From IMG/VR virus record IMGVR_UViG_3300032332_000211, positions 1-35,364 of that record: DNA of 35,364 nt, one strand, 5' to 3'. The notes beneath the pieces were generated by a model, which was given only the letters and a program-made list of their open reading frames with translations, was not told the origin of the DNA and searched no databases. Below, piece by piece: positions 9,213 to 30,207 of this stretch. The translations under genes and the position numbers were made by a program. The stretch is from a virus. Its lineage: Duplodnaviria > Caudoviricetes. How positions within the stretch are numbered: the first letter of the stretch is position 1; each line of letters starts with the position of its first letter.

Positions 9213-9505
9213 AACACAGGGAGTTTTTAAAGGAACACTATAACAATTACGAAACTGCTTCAAGTGGTTATGTAAGAAACCTAGATTTGCCTGTGCTTAA
9301 AATGTATGAGCATATTTATAGGTTATATCTTAATCCTACTTTTATACTTACTATTTGGTGTGGTGATTGTAGGATGCAAATGATATTAAAATTATACGCA
9401 TACTATATAGCTTTGCCAATTAGTGAAAAAAGTGAAAAAAGTGAAGTAATTGAACCTGAACAAGTTATAATTAAAAAAACTAAAAAGAAAAAGAATGGCA
9501 AATAA
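9203..9505 (+). CDS. Hypothetical protein with CxxC and basic tail
   Basis: WCGDC motif; operon overlaps on both sides. Confidence 0.65.
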   Translation: MELEHREFLKEHYNNYETASSGYVRNLDLPVLKMYEHIYRLYLNPTFILTIWCGDCRMQMILKLYAYYIALPISEKSEKSEVIEPEQVIIKKTKKKKNGK

Positions 9506-9977
9506 TATTCATCCAACTGCAATAATAGGTAAGAATGTTATACTAGGTGATAACAATTACATAGGTGCTTATAGTATTATAGGTGATATAGCAGAGCATA
9601 AGGGATTTTGGGATAAGCCAAAGGGTAAAGTTATAATTGGGAATAACAATATAATTACAGGATTAGTTACAATTGATGCAGGTACAGAACAAACTACTTA
9701 TATAGGTGACAATTGTTTTATTATGAAACACGCACACATAGGACACGATTGCACTATAAATAATAATGTTACAATAAGTTGTGGTGCTAAAATTGGTGGG
9801 CACTCTACAATAGGCGAAAAGTCTAACATAGGATTAAACGCAGTATTGCATCAATATAGCCAAATTAAAGTAGGTTGTATGATAGGAGCAAGTGCTTTTT
9901 TTAAAGGTGAATCAGAACCATATACAAAATATGCAGGTGTACCTGCTAAATCTTTAGGACAAAATATAATCAAATGA
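9495..9977 (+). CDS. Hexapeptide-repeat (LpxA-like) acyltransferase
   Basis: IHPTAII, IGDNCFIMKHAHIGHDC and GVPAK left-handed beta-helix repeats. Confidence 0.9.
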   Translation: MANNIHPTAIIGKNVILGDNNYIGAYSIIGDIAEHKGFWDKPKGKVIIGNNNIITGLVTIDAGTEQTTYIGDNCFIMKHAHIGHDCTINNNVTISCGAKIGGHSTIGEKSNIGLNAVLHQYSQIKVGCMIGASAFFKGESEPYTKYAGVPAKSLGQNIIK

Positions 9978-10561
9978 ACGCAGTAATCTATTTAAACTAT
10001 CAAAATAATAATGTTAAAACATTAGGTATTAACTTAATGAATGCAGGTATCAATGTAGAACAAGTTGTTATAGTTAATGAGAAAGGTATAGCTAATGCTA
10101 TTAATGTAGGTTTAAATAAAATAGATTTAAGCCATATTCAATATGTAACTTTATTAGCTAATGATATAATTGAACCTGATAATTGGTTAAAAGATAGAAA
10201 TGAATTTATGCAGGATAAAACAATAGGCATTTGTGCATTTCCTTTAGTTGGTGGATTTGATGATACTACAGATATAATAGGTAACTTTACAATAAGCAAA
10301 GAAGTTATAAAAAATGTAGGTGCGTTTAATACTGCACTTGACCCATACGGAGCAATTGACCTAGACTATTGTACACGAGTTAGGGCATCAGGTTTATATA
10401 CTAAATACATTCGTTCAGGTAAAGCAACTCATATAGAACAGAATGGTATAGATGCTTATGGTTATAATAAAAATGAATTAGTTAAAAGTACTTGGGAATT
10501 ACATACTAGCAATGTAGCTAACTATTCAAATGGCAGCAAAACATATTACCTTCCATTATGA
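9974..10561 (+). CDS. GT2-like glycosyltransferase
   Basis: GIANAINVGL, LANDI and VGAFN....YG..DLDY..R motifs. Confidence 0.75.
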   Translation: MNAVIYLNYQNNNVKTLGINLMNAGINVEQVVIVNEKGIANAINVGLNKIDLSHIQYVTLLANDIIEPDNWLKDRNEFMQDKTIGICAFPLVGGFDDTTDIIGNFTISKEVIKNVGAFNTALDPYGAIDLDYCTRVRASGLYTKYIRSGKATHIEQNGIDAYGYNKNELVKSTWELHTSNVANYSNGSKTYYLPL

Positions 10562-11562
10562 GAATACTAGCAATTACAAGTAAGTTTAGTGGTGTAGGTT
10601 ATCATAGAATAATGATGCCATTGGTTAATATGCAGAAAGACTATTGTATGATTACAGATACAATTAATGAAGCAGTATTTGATAACAATTATGACATAGT
10701 AATATTCAATAGATTTCTAGCACATACTGAAATAAGTATGCTTGAGGCTATGCGAAAAAGACATAACTTTAAGTTGGTAGTAGATAATGATGACTATTGG
10801 ATTTTACCACCATCACATATTTTATATGAGCGATACCAAAATAGTGATGTAACACAACGCATTATAGATTTTATTAGGATTGCAGACCTTTGTACCTGTA
10901 CACACGAAAGATTAGCAGAAGAAATAGCAATATATAATCCTAATGTAGAAATACTTCCTAACGCTTTACCTTATGGCAAAGAGCAATTCCAAGATAATAA
11001 GATTGAATCAGATATGGTTAGGTTGTTTTGGTCAGGTTCAGGAACACATACAGTTGATTTAGATATATTAAGGCAACCAATGAAAAAAATTAACTTCCCT
11101 GTAAGAACAGTTATTGCAGGATATAATCTAGGTGAAAAACATTTGTGGGATAGAATGATAGGAGTATTTACAAACGGATTAAAGTTAAACCCTACCATAT
11201 ATGACTACGCAGAAATTACAAAGTATATGGGTGCTTATGCCGATTCTGATATAAGTATAATTCCTTTAGTAGATAATAAGTTTGGTTCAATGAAATCTAA
11301 TTTAAAAGTATTAGAAACTGCTGCAAAGAAAAACCCTGCCATAGTTAGCAATGTCCATCCATATAAGAATATGCCTGTTTGCTATGTAAATAAACAAACT
11401 GATTGGTACAAATGGATTAAACTATTAACATTTGATGAAGCAGCTAGGATAGAATATGGGCAGAACCTATTTGAGTTTTGCGACAGGGAGTTTAACTTTG
11501 ACAAAATAAATAACAAGCGTTTTGCTATTTATAATAAATTGATAGGCAATGCCAATATATAA
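10558..11562 (+). CDS. GT-B (GT4-like) glycosyltransferase
   Basis: GVGYHR..MP, D.DDYW and DISIIPL....F...KS.LK.LE...P.IVS motifs. Confidence 0.85.
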   Translation: MRILAITSKFSGVGYHRIMMPLVNMQKDYCMITDTINEAVFDNNYDIVIFNRFLAHTEISMLEAMRKRHNFKLVVDNDDYWILPPSHILYERYQNSDVTQRIIDFIRIADLCTCTHERLAEEIAIYNPNVEILPNALPYGKEQFQDNKIESDMVRLFWSGSGTHTVDLDILRQPMKKINFPVRTVIAGYNLGEKHLWDRMIGVFTNGLKLNPTIYDYAEITKYMGAYADSDISIIPLVDNKFGSMKSNLKVLETAAKKNPAIVSNVHPYKNMPVCYVNKQTDWYKWIKLLTFDEAARIEYGQNLFEFCDREFNFDKINNKRFAIYNKLIGNANI

Positions 11563-12280
11563 ATGTTCAAACGGAAAATATAGAATAGGTACAGGAAGTT
11601 GTATTTATGATACACAAGAAAAGGCTGCTCAAGTATGGGCAGCTATTTTAGCAAGTGGTAAGATGGCAGGTAAAAAGGTTAGCTATGACTACGATGGTGT
11701 ATTAAGTACAGATGCAGGTAAAGAAAAAGCATTAAGAGATTATCAAGCAGGAAATATAGTTTATATAATTTCAGCTAGAAACGATAAATCAGGTATGCTT
11801 AATGTAGCTAGTCAATTACATATACCTAGTGATAGAGTTTATGCAACAGGTTCAAATAGAGAAAAGGTTAAAAAAATAGATTCACTTGGCATTGAAATAC
11901 ATACAGATAATAACCCTGATGTAATTACTCAAGTAAACGCATTACCAAAAGCAAGGGGGGTAAAGTTTGAGTTTGAAGAAACTTATAATGACTATCCTGA
12001 ATCAGCTAGTAATAATGCAAAGAGAGCATTGAAATGGGCAGAAGAAAATGGATGGGGTGATTGTGGAACTGCAGTAGGCAAAGCAAGGGCAAACCAATTA
12101 GCTAATAAAGAAAATATATCTAGGGATACTATTGCTAGGATGGCATCATTTAAAAGGCAGCAACAAAATAAAGATGTTCCATATTCAGAAGGTTGTGGCG
12201 GTTTAATGTGGGATGCGTGGGGTGGCACTTCAGGTGTTGAGTGGGCAATTAATAAGTTAAAACAAATAGATAAAAAATAA
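11549..12280 (+). CDS. Tripartite protein: short N-terminal module, HAD-like domain and a YNDYP...WGG head-associated domain
   Basis: SYDYDGVLS / IISAR / HTDNN HAD motifs; C-terminal YNDYP...CGT.VGK.RANQLA...GCG.LMWDAWGG. Confidence 0.65.
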   Translation: MPIYKCSNGKYRIGTGSCIYDTQEKAAQVWAAILASGKMAGKKVSYDYDGVLSTDAGKEKALRDYQAGNIVYIISARNDKSGMLNVASQLHIPSDRVYATGSNREKVKKIDSLGIEIHTDNNPDVITQVNALPKARGVKFEFEETYNDYPESASNNAKRALKWAEENGWGDCGTAVGKARANQLANKENISRDTIARMASFKRQQQNKDVPYSEGCGGLMWDAWGGTSGVEWAINKLKQIDKK

Positions 12281-22029: not shown

Positions 22030-23298
22030 ATGAGTATGGAATTACCATTATATATGTTGGAAATATCAGATGACTTAAACGATGATGCTGAAGTTCAGTT
22101 TGTCGCTTTAGTTGATAGACCTGCTATTCAAAAGAATTGGAATGCTTTTAAAAATGAACAAAAGTTTCAAATCATTAGTGAAGATAAGCACATCATTAGT
22201 GGTTGTGCTATGTTGGCTGACACTCCTATTTTTAGAAGTGATGCTAATTTCGGTGATTATTATGTGGCATTCTCAAAGGATACTATTGTTAAGATTGTAC
22301 AAAAGTACTTTAAAAAGGGTTACCAAAACAATGTAAACTTAATGCACGACCCTAATCAAATTGAAACAGGAGTAACAATGTTTGAAAGTTTTATTAGTGA
22401 TAAGTCTAGGGGAATTGAACCAATGAAAGGATTTGAAGATGCACCTGATGGAAGTTGGTTTGTATCTATGCTAGTAGAAAATGATGCAGTATGGCAGCAA
22501 GTTAAGGAAGGTAAGATTAATGGATTCTCTATTGAAGGTATATTTAACTATACTCCAAAGATACCTAAAGAACAACAGGTAATGAGTGAGATATATAAAA
22601 TATTAAATGAAGTAGAATTAGGTGGACCGGGAAGTGGTAGGAGACCTGAAGGCGGTGGTAGTAAAGAATCAACAGGTTCAGTAAAAATTGTATCCGTACA
22701 AGATAAAGAAGTAAAAGATTTAGTTTCTAAAGCACAGGCAGCAGCACCTGAAGTGGATAAATTAGGCAAAGATTTAGCAAATAAATATGGTGCAGTTGTT
22801 ACTCCTATTAATATGAAATCAGCAGATTCTATTGTAAGAAAAACAAATACAGAAGAAGGTGGTAATTTAGGTAATATAAAAGATGCAGTTAGAAATACTA
22901 TAATTACCGATGACCCAATTGCAATGCAAAATATTATTAAAGATTTAAGCAATGACCCTAGAGTAGCTAATGGTAATGGTAGAGTTAAAACTCAAACCCA
23001 CGAATCTAATCCATTGGGATATAGTGGTAATTTGGTCAATATAAAGACATCTAATGGCTTAACTGCAGAAATACAGGTAAATACACCTAAAATGATTTAT
23101 GCCAAAGAAAAGCCTGAAAATGCTAAATTAATACTAGGTGAAAAGAAATATAATGAAATTGCTAAACAAGTAGGTGTAGAAGGTGGTAAGGGTCACGACC
23201 TATACGAAAAATATCGTAATTTAGATAATGTAAAGGATGTTAAACAAAGAAGTCAAATAGAAAAAGAATCTAAAAAATATTACAGTAAATTTTTGTAA
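22030..23298 (+). CDS. Prohead serine protease fused to a C-terminal RelA/SpoT-like alarmone synthetase domain
   Basis: aa 1-197: ALVDRPAI, N.MHD, GSWF and GFSIEG protease motifs. Linker GGPGSGRRP at 22621. Then KSADSIVRK, IKDAVR, GYSG, EIQVNT and H.LYEKYR. Confidence 0.85.
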   Translation: MSMELPLYMLEISDDLNDDAEVQFVALVDRPAIQKNWNAFKNEQKFQIISEDKHIISGCAMLADTPIFRSDANFGDYYVAFSKDTIVKIVQKYFKKGYQNNVNLMHDPNQIETGVTMFESFISDKSRGIEPMKGFEDAPDGSWFVSMLVENDAVWQQVKEGKINGFSIEGIFNYTPKIPKEQQVMSEIYKILNEVELGGPGSGRRPEGGGSKESTGSVKIVSVQDKEVKDLVSKAQAAAPEVDKLGKDLANKYGAVVTPINMKSADSIVRKTNTEEGGNLGNIKDAVRNTIITDDPIAMQNIIKDLSNDPRVANGNGRVKTQTHESNPLGYSGNLVNIKTSNGLTAEIQVNTPKMIYAKEKPENAKLILGEKKYNEIAKQVGVEGGKGHDLYEKYRNLDNVKDVKQRSQIEKESKKYYSKFL

Positions 23299-23326
23299 TA
23301 TAAAATAAAATTAGTAAATTGTGTAT

Positions 23327-23545
23327 ATGAGAAATGAGAACTTACTAGAAGAAATTGTTAGTGGAAAACAAGTTTTCTTTGAGAATTCTTTTGAAGAAAC
23401 TGCGTTTAAAAATCTTCTCAAAGGTGGCTATGAAGCCAAGCAAAAAGGTGGTAAACCTTATTTGGTGGTAGGTAAGCCAAACAAATTGGTTGATGCGTGG
23501 TTAGAAGGGAAAATGATTAGTAAAGCAGAATACGAAAAGTACTAA
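23327..23545 (+). CDS. Small protein, candidate immunity factor
   Basis: 72 aa from ATG 23327, immediately downstream of the toxin-like domain. Confidence 0.6.
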   Translation: MRNENLLEEIVSGKQVFFENSFEETAFKNLLKGGYEAKQKGGKPYLVVGKPNKLVDAWLEGKMISKAEYEKY

Positions 23546-24041
23546 TTAATCTACCTTTTAAATAAAGCATTTCTAATTTATTAGATAATGGTTTATTAAT
23601 TTTAGAGTATATAATCTTGAATTTATTTGATTCAGATATATACTTTTTTAATTTGTGGTAGTTTCTATTTCTTATACATTCCCTGACATTACATATCCTA
23701 TCAGATAGTTTTACTATTGAAGCTATTTCACTTTTAGATATTTCTATATAGTATTTATCTAATGGCGGTTTTTTAGTAAGCAGTTTTACATTACTATAAA
23801 CTTTATTACTTATCTGTTTAAGTTTACTTTCATATAATGTAGTATCTTCTAATATATCGTGCAATGCACATACAGAAAGGATTATATCCATTTTTATACC
23901 TTTGATATTATTTTGATTACAAAATCTTTCTGCTTCAAACCATACATCTAATAAATGGTATAGATAAGGTTTAACCCCATACTGCTGATACTTGTGGTAT
24001 TCAGCAGCAAGGGCAAGTGAGTTATATTTTATTTTATTCAT
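23517..24041 (-). CDS. HD-domain small alarmone hydrolase (Mesh1/SpoT-HD/Aph1-like)
   Basis: H..Q....PY..H...V, LHDILEDT, V.LLTK and VKLSDRI.N motifs. Confidence 0.9.
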   Translation of the reverse strand: MNKIKYNSLALAAEYHKYQQYGVKPYLYHLLDVWFEAERFCNQNNIKGIKMDIILSVCALHDILEDTTLYESKLKQISNKVYSNVKLLTKKPPLDKYYIEISKSEIASIVKLSDRICNVRECIRNRNYHKLKKYISESNKFKIIYSKINKPLSNKLEMLYLKGRLISTFRILLY

Positions 24042-24047
24042 ATTTAA

Positions 24048-24626
24048 TTAAGCATACCAACTAGAGTAAACTCCTTTTTCTTCTTTGCTTTCAATGAAAT
24101 TGCAGAAACAACCGTGTTTTGCTGATATGTGATAACTTATGTTTCCGCTATAATTAACTGAAGTTACGATTTTTTTAAGAATCGGTTCACCTACAAAATA
24201 ATCTTTAATAGGCTTAACATTTGCAGACATAAAACCTTCAGAACCTTTAATATAACTACTAGCAATTGCTCTCAAAATTACTGACTTTGCTTTAACTTCT
24301 ACGATTTGATAGAAGTCAATATTAGTTTGGTCATATCCCCAAGAATTGTAAATGATTGAACCTTCTACATAATTGTGGTTCATATTCTTTTGTGCTTCCT
24401 TCTTAATAGCCTTTCTTTCATTTTCACTATTAATATTCTTTTCAACTCTTTCAATCCATTCAGAACAATATTCAGCCATTCTTTCAGGACTTTTGAACCT
24501 GTAATTAAATAATGCTTTAGGGAATCTAGCTTTACTTTTAGCTTTCATACACAGGGCAATGTTTAATTCTTCTTTAACGGTTAGTACATAACCTAGACTT
24601 TCATACTTTTCAATTAAATTTTTCAT
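24048..24626 (-). CDS. Hypothetical cassette protein with SWGYDQTNIDFYQ domain
   Basis: Long ORF with an aaact-ATG leader; motif typical of phage/mobile-element early proteins. Confidence 0.8.
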   Translation of the reverse strand: MKNLIEKYESLGYVLTVKEELNIALCMKAKSKARFPKALFNYRFKSPERMAEYCSEWIERVEKNINSENERKAIKKEAQKNMNHNYVEGSIIYNSWGYDQTNIDFYQIVEVKAKSVILRAIASSYIKGSEGFMSANVKPIKDYFVGEPILKKIVTSVNYSGNISYHISAKHGCFCNFIESKEEKGVYSSWYA

Positions 24627-24645
24627 AGTTTTTAGTTTTTATAAT

Positions 24646-24921
24646 TTAGATAATTTGTTTATATAATTCAGAATTTTTAATTTTCTCACCAATAAAGAAC
24701 CATTTTAATTTTCTCATTAAAACTTGATTAAAATGAGTTTCATTTTCAAAAGCATTAGTATAGGCTATAACTCCCATATTTACTGCTCTATCAGTAATGT
24801 TTGCAAACTCTAAAAAAGTTCCATACTGATTTGGTTCTTTTGAATACTCTTTAAATAATTCTTGAAATAATTCGGCTTGATGACCATAATAACCTAGTTC
24901 AATTGAAATTGTCTTTTCCAT
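24646..24921 (-). CDS. Hypothetical cassette protein
   Basis: ORF in the minus-strand operon; aaacact-ATG leader. Confidence 0.75.
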   Translation of the reverse strand: MEKTISIELGYYGHQAELFQELFKEYSKEPNQYGTFLEFANITDRAVNMGVIAYTNAFENETHFNQVLMRKLKWFFIGEKIKNSELYKQII

Positions 24922-24931
24922 AGTGTTTATT

Positions 24932-25033
24932 TTATTTGATTAAAAATTGAATTAAAACTGAAGCAATAGCTGAAATAATTAAAGTAAGGAATAACTTAAC
25001 TTCAATTGGAGCAGGGAGTGTTTTGTGTTTCAT
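24932..25033 (-). CDS. Small single-TM peptide (33 aa, not in ORF track)
   Basis: MKHKTLPAPIEVKLFLTLIISAIASVLIQFLIK; aaacaaacact leader; first ORF after the promoter. Confidence 0.6.
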   Translation of the reverse strand: MKHKTLPAPIEVKLFLTLIISAIASVLIQFLIK

Positions 25034-25066
25034 AGTGTTTGTTTTTGGTGTCTCTCAATGACATAG

Positions 25067-25157
25067 TAAAAGTACACAGGTTTTAAACACATTCCAAACA
25101 TTTGCCCCACTTTTTTTGATTAATTTGATGAACGGTAAATATTAGGGATGAACGGTT
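25067..25157 (-). promoter_or_regulatory. Cassette promoter with paired ACCGTTCATC boxes
   Basis: Boxes at 25147-25157 and 25127-25137; TTTG at 25095-25098, 20-nt spacer, TACTTTTA at 25067-25074. Confidence 0.7.
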
Positions 25158-25202
25158 AAGTGATAAACTATATGTTTTATTAACATTTAAAGAAAAATAA
25201 AG

Positions 25203-25799
25203 ATGAACCCAAAAGAAGCATTACAACAAATAAGAGCCTTATTTGAAGATATGCCACAAGTTGTTGAGCCACAAGCACCTGTTACTGAAGAAGTTACAAA
25301 GGTAGAAATGGCTGAATATTCTTTGGCTGATGGCACAAAGGTTATGATTTCCGCTTTGGAAATCGGTGGTAAAGTAGAGATGGCTGATGGCACTCCTGCT
25401 CCACAAGGCGAACATCAATTAATGGATGGCACTTCTATCCAAGTTGATGAAACAGGAACAATAATTGAAATAGCATCACCTAAAGAAGATGTTGTTGTTG
25501 AAGAACCTGTAGCACCTGCAGCACCTGTTGCACCTGCACAAGATACTACTGCAATGGTAGCTGAATTAAAAGCAGATTTCGCAGAGCAAAAAAGTCAATT
25601 AGAAACAAAAATTGCTGAATTAGAGAGTAAAGTAAAACAAGGTTTTGCACAAGTAGCTGAATTAGTAGAAGCACTTTCAAACACTCCAACTGCTGAACCA
25701 ACTCAAAAAGCAGCAAACGCTTTTCAATCATATGTATCTACAAATGATACTAAATATGAAAGATTAGAGAAATATAGAAACGCAATTTTAAACAAATAA
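25203..25799 (+). CDS. Capsid scaffolding protein
   Basis: Acidic; L.DGT and PAP.GEH.L.DG repeats, coiled coil; directly before the major capsid gene. Confidence 0.75.
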   Translation: MNPKEALQQIRALFEDMPQVVEPQAPVTEEVTKVEMAEYSLADGTKVMISALEIGGKVEMADGTPAPQGEHQLMDGTSIQVDETGTIIEIASPKEDVVVEEPVAPAAPVAPAQDTTAMVAELKADFAEQKSQLETKIAELESKVKQGFAQVAELVEALSNTPTAEPTQKAANAFQSYVSTNDTKYERLEKYRNAILNK

Positions 25800-27853: not shown

Positions 27854-28228
27854 ATGATACATTTGACAAAAGGGGAAACAAATACTATTGTGTTAACATT
27901 AACTGAAAAGCAGTTATTGACTAACCCAAACTATTTATTTGTGTTTACTAACAGAAGTAGCAATGTAGTAGTAAGTTTTGTTAAATTAAACGCAACAGAT
28001 ACAAGTTTATATAAAGATAGATATAATGAATTTAGCATTGTAACTAATACTAATTTTAGCACCGCTTTAGAAGGGCAATACACATACGAGATATATGAAC
28101 AAGCAAGTACTTCAAACACAAATCCAAGTGGCTTAAACAAGCTAGAAACAGGGATTATGTGGCTTTCAGGTACTACTATATCATTTACAGAATACACAAC
28201 AACAGACACTTATACAATTAGACAATGA
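27854..28228 (+). CDS. Structural hypothetical protein (beta-rich)
   Basis: Upstream of the portal with an ATGA overlap; G.Y.YEIYEQ.S..N.NP motif. Confidence 0.7.
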   Translation: MIHLTKGETNTIVLTLTEKQLLTNPNYLFVFTNRSSNVVVSFVKLNATDTSLYKDRYNEFSIVTNTNFSTALEGQYTYEIYEQASTSNTNPSGLNKLETGIMWLSGTTISFTEYTTTDTYTIRQ

Positions 28229-30207
28229 TAGATTTAAGAGTATTAACATTCGCAGAAGCTAGGCAGCCTGAATTCAAAGAGAAGAAAGGTATTGATGGCG
28301 GCTACATTAAATATGGGGAAAATAATGATTACCCTGAATATATAGTTGACTTATACAACAAGTCATCAAAGCATAGTGCTATTATTAAAAGTAAAGTACA
28401 CTACATTACAGGAAATGGTTGGAGTGGTGAGGCAGATGCACAAGGCTTTATTGATTACGCAAATAGAGTTGAATCTTTAAATGATTTAACAAGAAAGGTA
28501 TCTTTAGATATTGAGATATTTGGCGGTGCTTATATGGAAGTTATTTGGGATTTAGCAGGTAACCTTGCAGAGATTTGGCATTGTGATTATGTTAAGATAC
28601 GCACGAATAAAGATAATACGCAGTATTGGTATAAAGAGGATTGGAAGGATAACAAAGTTAAACCTGATGTTATTGCTGCATTTAATCCTAAACTACCAAC
28701 AGGCAAACAAATTTTGTATGTAAAAGAGTATAGACCAAATATAGGAATCTATGGATTGCCTAGTTATTTTGCTGCATTAAATTATATTGAATCAGACATT
28801 GAAGTTTCTAAACATATTTTAGGTAATGCACAAACAGGGTTTTCTGCTAGTAAACTTATTACCTTACCAAATGGTGAGCCTAATGATGAAGAAAAAAGAA
28901 ATGTAGATAATAGATTACGCAAGACTTATAGCGGTGCAGATGGCAAAAAGTATATGATTGCTTTTGTTAATGACATATCTAGGAAGCCTGTCGTAGATGA
29001 TTTAGGAACGAGTGATTTAACCAAAGAAGATTTTGGCAGAGTAGATGCTTTGATACAAACTAATATATTTAGTGGGCATCAGGTTACTACTCCATCCATT
29101 ATGGGTATTGCAGAAGCAGGTAAGTTAGGAAGCAGAACAGAGATGCGTGATGGTTACGAGATATTTAAAAACACTTATGTTAATGCTAAACAGATGCACC
29201 TAGAAAGTGTATTTAATATGTTAGCTAAATTAAAAGGTGTTACAAGTGAGATTAAAATTATACCAACAGAACCAATAGGAATAGAATTTAGTGAAGCAAC
29301 AATAGTTCAAGTTGCTCCTAAAGAATGGGTATTAGAAAAGATAGGTATTGATATGACTAAATATGCACCTGTACAAGATGCAAGTGTACCTGCACAAACC
29401 TTATCTGTTAACGAACATATTAAAGGTTTAAAAGGTCGTGAGTGGCAAAATATGCAGCGTATAATTCGTGAGTACACTAAAGGTAAGATTAACAGAGAAC
29501 AAGCAGGAGCAATGCTTAAAACAGGATATGCGTTAAGTGATGAAGAAGTTAATACTTGGCTAGGTTCGGAAGAACTAGATGCACAATTTGCTGAACAAGA
29601 TTTTGGAGTATTCTTTGAGTTTGGTGAAACAAAAGAAAGTTATAACATTTGGAAGTCTAAAAAGCGTTTTAGTGATGAAGCAGACTTTTATATGTTTGCT
29701 GATGTTAATCAATTAGAATCAGACATATTAGACCAAATAGCTAAACAAAAGGATATTACACCTGAAGTATTAGCAGAGGTTTTAGATGAAAGTGTAGAAA
29801 CTATTAATACAGTTATAAAGGATTTAGAAGACAGAAAGATATTAAAGACTACTGAAACTAAAATAGGTAAGGGAATAAATAGTAACATTATAATTTCAAG
29901 GGAGTTAACACAACCATTGAGCAAGGCAGTTGGTGAAACAAAGCCACAAACAACTGAAATTTTAGTTCGCTATTCTTATGATTGGATTGCAGGATTTAAT
30001 AATAGTGATATAACTAATAGCAGACCTTTTTGCAAGGCTTTACTAGGTGCTAACAAACTATATAGCAGAAGTGATATTGAATCTATGAGTGCAAGATTAG
30101 GATATTCAGTTTGGGATAGAAGGGGCGGATGGTGGAATGATAATGGAACAATAAGTGAATCCTGTCGCCACGAGTGGAAAACAAATGTAGTAACAAGAAA
30201 AAAATAA
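28225..30207 (+). CDS. Portal protein with C-terminal wHTH-like and MuF-like extensions
   Basis: YGENNDYP, S..H.AII..K and Y.LPSY portal motifs; LDQI....IT.E.LAE.L......I...I.DL HTH pattern; SRPFC...CRHEW. Confidence 0.8.
   Translation: MIDLRVLTFAEARQPEFKEKKGIDGGYIKYGENNDYPEYIVDLYNKSSKHSAIIKSKVHYITGNGWSGEADAQGFIDYANRVESLNDLTRKVSLDIEIFGGAYMEVIWDLAGNLAEIWHCDYVKIRTNKDNTQYWYKEDWKDNKVKPDVIAAFNPKLPTGKQILYVKEYRPNIGIYGLPSYFAALNYIESDIEVSKHILGNAQTGFSASKLITLPNGEPNDEEKRNVDNRLRKTYSGADGKKYMIAFVNDISRKPVVDDLGTSDLTKEDFGRVDALIQTNIFSGHQVTTPSIMGIAEAGKLGSRTEMRDGYEIFKNTYVNAKQMHLESVFNMLAKLKGVTSEIKIIPTEPIGIEFSEATIVQVAPKEWVLEKIGIDMTKYAPVQDASVPAQTLSVNEHIKGLKGREWQNMQRIIREYTKGKINREQAGAMLKTGYALSDEEVNTWLGSEELDAQFAEQDFGVFFEFGETKESYNIWKSKKRFSDEADFYMFADVNQLESDILDQIAKQKDITPEVLAEVLDESVETINTVIKDLEDRKILKTTETKIGKGINSNIIISRELTQPLSKAVGETKPQTTEILVRYSYDWIAGFNNSDITNSRPFCKALLGANKLYSRSDIESMSARLGYSVWDRRGGWWNDNGTISESCRHEWKTNVVTRKK

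Follow-up and report, generated by a model that had tools for sequence, protein, structure and literature searches.

Why should the maturation protease of a phage head carry an alarmone synthetase as its tail, with two candidate antidote genes next to it? The question is raised by the whole IMG/VR record IMGVR_UViG_3300032332_000211, a linear stretch of 35,364 bases (CheckV 100%) that was analyzed at full length and is called the window here. A sequence-only reading had described in it a prohead protease fused to an alarmone-synthetase toxin domain and followed by a candidate immunity protein and a convergent HD hydrolase. The fusion is real and widespread in its phage group, and the tail is, by sequence and modeled fold, a Tas1/Apk2-type synthetase.

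The protease carrier and its synthetase tail

The open reading frame (ORF) at 22030..23298 (+ strand) encodes 422 residues and is uninterrupted across position 22621. Its N-terminal part (residues 1-197, 22030..22620, +) is an XkdF/S78_2 prohead protease as judged from family match, His/Ser pair and gene position. Peptidase_S78_2 was matched at residues 49-171 in a Pfam scan of the ORF (E 6e-15), the domain was assigned to the PHROG head maturation protease (phrog_24921), the predicted catalytic H106 and S167 were invariant in 14 of 14 aligned protease relatives, and the gene lies upstream of the scaffold-like, capsid and portal genes. The median ratio of nonsynonymous to synonymous substitution rates (dN/dS) of the protease domain was 0.03.

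For the fusion proteins, 1067 sequences passed E 0.001; the best 120 of these 1067 were taken into a set of 121 (P0001-P0121), at least 103 of which are full protease-synthetase fusions. In the protease-domain survey, in which the best 80 of 598 viral loci were compared, the fusion was present in 20 of 80 independent loci. No contig spanned the protease-synthetase junction of this exact genome, including those of the run that is possibly its source. An origin by misassembly or read-through was nevertheless ruled out, because relatives carry the same fusion, a support that comes from them and not from junction reads of the genome itself. The protease was rightly named as the carrier, and the stop or misassembly near 22621 that would have undone the earlier proposal was not found.

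The ORF contains every motif named beforehand: GGPGSG at residue 198, in the linker, and, in the tail (residues ~228-422, 22711..23298, +), KSADSIVRK at 263, IKDAVR at 283, GYSG at 330, EIQVNT at 347 and GHDLYEKYR at 388, and the synthetase motifs were kept in 101-103 of 103 fusions. Residues 229-419 matched Tas1 (6OX6_A, E 2.2e-28), the sole PDB match at E<=1. In an AlphaFold model of the domain (predicted local distance difference test, pLDDT, 92.8), Tas1 was again the best fold match by Foldseek (E 4e-15, template-modeling score, TM, 0.81), so that the suggested structure prediction recovered the Tas1 fold; RelP, RelQ and SaEAS, which are (p)ppGpp synthetases, came next and far behind (E ~1e-5). 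Among the synthetase motifs, syn2 (D-x-x-R-N-T) and syn4 (EIQVN) follow Tas1, and there is no His after GY and no SxH. The contrast of motifs between Apk and RelA/SpoT-homolog (RSH) synthetases was taken from PMC12226406. The domain is 47% identical to the MuF-Apk2 domain of locus L119, an Apk2-IapK-Aph1 locus, in which GYSGNI at syn3 resembles the GYSGNL of the window.

A survey with the synthetase domain gave 57 new loci, in which the synthetase was borne by a protease (29), by a long N-terminus, MuF where checked (26), or by a short one (2). Protease-borne synthetases diverge down to 42% identity and form a group separate from most of the MuF-borne ones, though a weakly supported one (Shimodaira-Hasegawa approximate likelihood-ratio test, 85). 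Median dN/dS was 0.15-0.17 for the synthetase, immunity and HD genes (medians over 11 relatives).

The protease family at large, sampled as 150 representatives at 50% identity, carries many inserts, both at the C-terminus and after residue ~40. Proteins P0125-P0229 have arrays of small recurring modules after residue ~40, mostly beginning after Phe. In locus L033 the protease has a premature TAG two codons ahead of the usual stop, which masks the terminal Phe codon, and the proteases of L034, L039 and other kin of L033 end similarly short; these short ends suggest that the C-terminus is free to erode once it is without cargo.

Predicted antidotes in an exchangeable cassette

Directly downstream of the synthetase lies a 72-residue ORF (23327..23545, +), which is predicted by homology and position to encode a Tis1/IapK-like immunity protein that binds the synthetase, and thus to be a candidate antidote. 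A profile of 13 small post-synthetase ORFs matched a single PDB chain, Tis1 (6OX6_B, E 2.5e-6), and with a profile of the 8 protease-linked ORFs alone Tis1 was still the top match (E 0.034); the single window protein did not match Pfam Tis1_ImmP. The small immunity candidate of the sequence-only reading was thus borne out, as was the 29-nt overlap between this ORF and the convergent HD ORF on the opposite strand.

The HD ORF (23517..24041, - strand) is predicted to encode a small alarmone hydrolase, PaSAH-like, and a second candidate antidote. Its closest structure was Pseudomonas aeruginosa PaSAH (6YVC, E 2.8e-5), and HDxxED was invariant in 10 of 10 aligned HD proteins. An Aph1 had been expected at this place. 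That part did not hold: Aph1 (7SMG) was not matched at E<=1, and of the Aph1 signature given in the available part of PMC10083569 (D24, R96, D116, R119, K133 and Y134) only K133 and Y134 are retained, four of six residues being missing. The alarmone hydrolase stood and the Aph1 identity fell. The hydrolase of L119 is by comparison a true Aph1 (7SMG, E 8e-56). The immunity ORF and the HD gene both accompanied the synthetase wherever its locus was complete (19 of 19) and were absent from all other loci, including the 11 with a zeta tail (0 of 11), described next. The HD gene has a guanine-plus-cytosine (GC) content of 25%, versus 32%.

The tail of the protease is one of several states. Among the 80 loci, the tail is absent in 48, a synthetase in 20, a zeta-like kinase in 11 (Pfam, E 5e-24; 1GVN, E 1e-6) and an unrelated sequence in one, so that the survey of C-termini after GGPGSG proposed earlier found them variable. 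In the 48 tail-less loci the protease is followed by the scaffold gene after 40-50 nt, and the tail-less proteases end where GGPGSG would begin, give or take a few residues. The cassette limits are accordingly 22621-25156 (~2.5 kb), ahead of the sequence at 25157..25202 (+), which in tail-less relatives supplies the stop codon and spacer directly after the protease gene; the left edge is the GGPGSG tag with its Gly-rich linker (22621..22677, +). Inside this larger cassette the swapped part is the toxin-antidote module, 22678-24046. On the two flanks of this module a relative with a zeta tail has 97.8% and 93.8% identity to the window, the left match ending at 22677, and in contigs of two further runs 22677 is joined to 24047 through 1014 other bases. 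Synthetase and zeta tails are borne by proteases that are 98-99% identical.

The four tail states interleave on the protease tree (75 distinct core sequences): no fewer than 22 changes are required, versus a possible minimum of 3 and a mean of 30.4 after shuffling, and zeta tails cluster no more than by chance. Gains and losses are indistinguishable, because recombination inside the protease blurs the tree. In zeta loci a 56-57-residue minus-strand ORF takes the place of the HD gene (18 of 18 zeta rows, partly from overlapping contigs); this 56-residue protein gave no match in family or structure searches and, by its position only, may be the antidote of the zeta tail. The locus thus has the marks of a polymorphic toxin: a constant N-terminal carrier with exchangeable toxins, and partner genes that co-vary with the toxin.

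A third cargo behind GGxGSG, of ~177 residues (L312:4001-5131; P0124 and P0161), occurs as a C-terminal tail or an internal insert. By eye it resembled an ADP-ribosyltransferase, but it had no match in Pfam, NCBIfam, PHROG or PDB and was left unclassified; no antidote operon was found beside this tail or beside that of L074.

The HD gene is the last of a minus-strand operon that begins with a 33-residue hydrophobic peptide (24932..25033, -) and continues with a variable ORF of 91 residues (24646..24921, -), present in only some cassette loci, and an ORF of 192 residues (24048..24626, -) that borders the right swap point at 24047. The last of these encodes a conserved phage protein (phrog_37844) and is a constant cassette member, present at every complete locus with a synthetase or zeta tail (30 of 30) and at no tail-less one (0 of 48). 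Its model (pLDDT 88.9) had no PDB fold match at E<=0.001, and only 4 viral matches, uncharacterized, with no named Atlas family. The same gene, 63-65% identical, lies directly after the terminase large subunit and on its strand in L253, L255, L258 and L259 (4001-4576), phages that have no cassette, and ~1100 viral stretches match the patterns of the protein. The 33-residue peptide, previously unannotated, was present in 28 of 34 distinct cassette loci (19-residue hydropathy 2.6); as a guess, it is a superinfection-exclusion or membrane factor.

Promoter motifs were sought with the -33/-7 consensus that we take to be the Bacteroidota type. One such motif heads the minus-strand operon (25067..25098, -) at a fixed position, with the full consensus in 14 and a last-base mismatch in 12 of 34 distinct loci. 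A promoter-like site lies directly before the 72-residue ORF (23292..23322, +) and has one mismatch in the -7 box here; the exact -7 box was found in 8 and the full -33/-7 pair in 5 of 20 distinct loci (chance ~0.1 per 90 nt). Since both antidotes are preceded by promoter motifs, they could be made by the host polymerase apart from the late operon. A generic sigma-70 scan was at chance level (16 versus 19). Two 151-nt contigs of one metatranscriptome fell on 23258-23529, which was too little to use.

Tyrosine integrase (PF00589) was absent from the record itself (1 of 1) and from complete cassette-bearing relatives (5 of 5), and a scan of window ORFs found no recombinase or repressor family; the genome does encode an Erf recombinase. 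The cassette phages appear from their gene content not to integrate, which is compatible with a non-integrating temperate life. Related phages turned up in lake-water runs. Of 38 genome records that contain a related protease, 31 name Bacteroidota (mostly Chitinophagaceae and Sphingobacteriaceae), and the cassette was found in 0 of these 38 genome-contig loci.

The GGxGSG tag and proposed delivery through the head

The GGxGSG tag was present in 28 of 29 protease-borne synthetase loci and in 0 of 28 others. All 33 distinct contexts have F, L or M just before GG[PVE]GSG, versus 5.6% of 268 other GG pairs; five of the 33 contexts are not homologous, three lying in N-terminal inserts and two in stand-alone synthetases. 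A DNA scan for the motif (56 matches, several of them GC-rich off-frame chance matches) was left out of the count of this P1 residue because the scan fixed two residues before the tag. The constant F/L/M suggests a self-cleavage site, predicted to lie just before the tag, after L197. The neighboring head proteins have similar starts: the scaffold module begins after M or F (8 of 8), and all 21 distinct capsid N-termini have F at position 3. The Phe that often stands ahead of the protease core (52 of 60) may have a structural role and was not counted as evidence of cleavage. A second linker type, with RDxxGRF, was seen in 8 proteins. The literature searched contained no report on the specificity of this protease family.

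The tag was also met elsewhere. In P0169 and P0187, which are stand-alone synthetases, GGxGSG follows a leader of 15-24 residues that ends in F or L and resembles a capsid-targeting leader. Further copies of this tag were seen within a Mu-type protease, ahead of an HNH domain and, in unrelated phages, in small ORFs (L154:997-2247, L181:3-1124, L176, L157, L183 and L188); in the HNH case it stands, judged by inspection, at a portal-like C-terminus.

We propose that the fusion is a polymorphic toxin loaded into the head on its protease carrier, and put the whole chain of steps at a probability of about 0.5. The domain would very probably make (p)ppApp from ATP or ADP. In the producing cell the Tis1-like protein would probably block the synthetase while the HD enzyme removed its product. 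The fusion would then enter proheads and cleave itself after F/L/M (here at Leu197/GGPGSG), a step that we consider fairly likely. Somewhat more doubtfully, the freed domain would be ejected with the DNA, drain the ATP of the new host and then be neutralized by antidotes made from host-type promoters. The benefit might be a brief stall of ATP-dependent defenses, or harm where the antidotes are not made, in other cells or to co-infecting phages. Homology argues strongly for the predicted enzyme and antidotes, motif statistics argue with moderate strength for cleavage, and ejection is the weakest step.

Several observations weigh against this proposal. The cassette is dispensable, since it is missing from 48 of 80 relatives, and no cultured phage was found to have the fusion (0 of 6 matching records cover 80% of the protein). 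The strict GxN form of Apk syn3 was found in 0 of 103 fusions. The F/L/M contexts are related by descent, no more than 5 of the 33 lying outside the C-terminal helix of the protease; F or L is the last residue in only 6 of 17 tail-less proteases; and in distant representatives the pattern at the scaffold start held in 17 of 30 and that at other modules in 13 of 16 and 4 of 9. Both promoter motifs are mismatched in this genome. HK97-type proteases digest themselves and leave the head, and the cargo could therefore be destroyed or trapped. Packaging and injection are called open questions even for MuF toxins (PMC10083569, in the part available; PMC12226406).

Head loading was weighed against three other explanations. 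The cassette could act only in the producing cell and never be ejected, its late timing and the release of the toxin by cleavage or antidote decay serving to shut off the host or to abort co-infecting phages. The place of the synthetase in the late operon fits this, separate antidote promoters agree with ordinary toxin-antitoxin logic, and the tag has no known ejection signal; for MuF toxins, too, delivery is still unproven. A phage that depleted ATP while its DNA was being packaged should, however, harm itself; the synthetase lineage rides almost always on head proteins (29 protease-borne and 26 on long carriers, MuF where checked, of 57), and the tag recurs in the Mu-type protease and, by inspection, at the portal-like C-terminus before HNH. 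We give this explanation a minority share of credence, large enough to be kept in view.

The cassette might instead be a selfish or neutral hitch-hiker, a toxin-antitoxin-like moron spread by recombination in the flanking head genes with no benefit to the phage. Its patchy occurrence and frequent swaps, the location of the 192-residue gene elsewhere in related phages, the encoded Erf recombinase and the lower GC content of the HD gene (25% versus 32%) would all follow. It is improbable when set against a fusion that is in frame, always at the same residue and preceded by a conserved tag, against protease-borne synthetases that are long diverged (to 42% identity) and under purifying selection, and against the persistence in a cell lineage that addiction requires, as no integrase was found. 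Equally improbable, if not slightly more so, is a domain that makes (p)ppGpp or modifies another acceptor (for example tRNA) and steers the stringent response, with a broad PaSAH-like hydrolase to tune it: the hydrolase suits such a role, whereas Tas1 is by far the closest structure (E 4e-15 versus ~1e-5), the nearest synthetase relatives adjoin a true Aph1, and a Tis1-like neighbor is present.

If head loading is right, it could be taken one step further, to an idea that we regard as unlikely. A lytic phage would inject a poison released by its protease while the antidotes came only on the incoming DNA, under host promoters; cells that destroy or silence the phage genome (by restriction, CRISPR or superinfection exclusion) would then die of ATP depletion, and permissive cells would be rescued. 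Such a phage would hold a poison-antidote switch at the level of infection, with interchangeable warheads, a (p)ppApp synthetase or a zeta-like kinase, in a GGxGSG-tagged slot on the maturation protease.

Relation to known systems and neighboring genes

The nearest described systems are the Apk2-IapK(BcTis1)-Aph1 loci on MuF proteins (PMC10083569, in the part available; PMC12226406). Common to both are the synthetase family (47% identity to L119), a Tis1-like gene directly downstream, an HD second antidote, a place in the head module and a variable C-terminal toxin. Here the carrier is an S78_2 protease and the N-terminus is not MuF, the hydrolase is PaSAH-like and lies on the opposite strand in an operon led by its own promoter, and there are a GGxGSG tag and a cassette that is optional as a whole. 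MuF toxins occur in no virulent phage according to the accessible text of PMC5576092, whereas no integrase was found here. The locus is thus not a member of Apk2, although it resembles an Apk2 locus, because it has neither MuF nor Aph1 and shows no sign of lysogeny. P. aeruginosa Tas1(Apk1)-Tis1 (PDB 6OX6) gave the best sequence and fold match for the toxin and the best sequence match for the immunity protein; Tas1 is a PAAR-linked type VI secretion effector, whereas the window protein is phage-encoded and without PAAR.

In T4, Alt and other internal proteins have a capsid-targeting sequence that is cut by gp21. As proposed here, both systems would load a protease-processed enzyme into the head for the next host, the cargo of the window being fused to the protease itself and having dedicated candidate antidote genes. 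Injection of Alt into the host is mentioned in the available part of PMC5512222. Effectors fused to head or polyvalent proteins are described in the accessible passages of PMC5512222, PMC9503650 and PMC3482391, with MuF carrying RelA/SpoT or zeta-like kinase domains and a capsid-processing serine peptidase carrying Nudix domains (the last in PMC9503650), and all are predicted there to enter the capsid and be injected. The assemblin-like peptidase of polyvalent proteins lies at the C-terminus (PMC5512222), and none of these accessible passages describes a protease-borne synthetase or zeta, an immunity pair or a swappable cassette.

The carriers on record, as far as the accessible parts of these papers go, are PAAR for Apk1 and MuF for Apk2, RelA/SpoT and zeta (PMC12226406, PMC10083569, PMC12691689, PMC5512222, PMC7824862, PMC9503650, PMC11699363, PMC5576092, PMC3482391). 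The sequence-only reading knew of no protease-borne version. For the synthetase this held, since no protease-borne (p)ppApp synthetase was found in the literature searched, from which most subscription papers and supplements were excluded; the carrier idea itself has a precedent, because the Nudix-peptidase fusions are in print (PMC9503650, in part). Supplementary architecture lists of Aravind-group papers, which were not covered, could hold such a fusion. Among the papers listed, none concerned GGPGSG on phage heads by title. New here are the optional 2.5-kb cassette, the zeta-kinase alternative and the counter-oriented, promoter-led operon. The maturation protease is added beside PAAR and MuF as a carrier of a predicted (p)ppApp synthetase, which suggests that an essential head protein has a slot for cargo. 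The packaging, injection and purpose of phage-head polymorphic toxins are stated to be open in the Apk2 literature, and the locus offers a natural experiment on them: proteases that hardly differ in sequence but end without a tail, in a synthetase or in a zeta-like kinase, together with a defined candidate cleavage site and phages that apparently do not integrate.

Downstream of the cassette, the ORF at 25203..25799 (+) encodes a putative scaffold protein, assigned to phrog_24921 as for the protease; scaffold and protease are fused in many relatives. The portal gene (28225-30207, 660 residues) has a C-terminal extension of ~320 residues with weak helix-turn-helix matches and an end that contains Cys and His; by eye this C-terminus looked MuF-like, which no family match confirmed. 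Before the terminase, the region 9495-12280 encodes a hexapeptide-repeat transferase, a glycosyltransferase and a nucleotidase-like protein, which possibly form a surface or virion glycosylation module.

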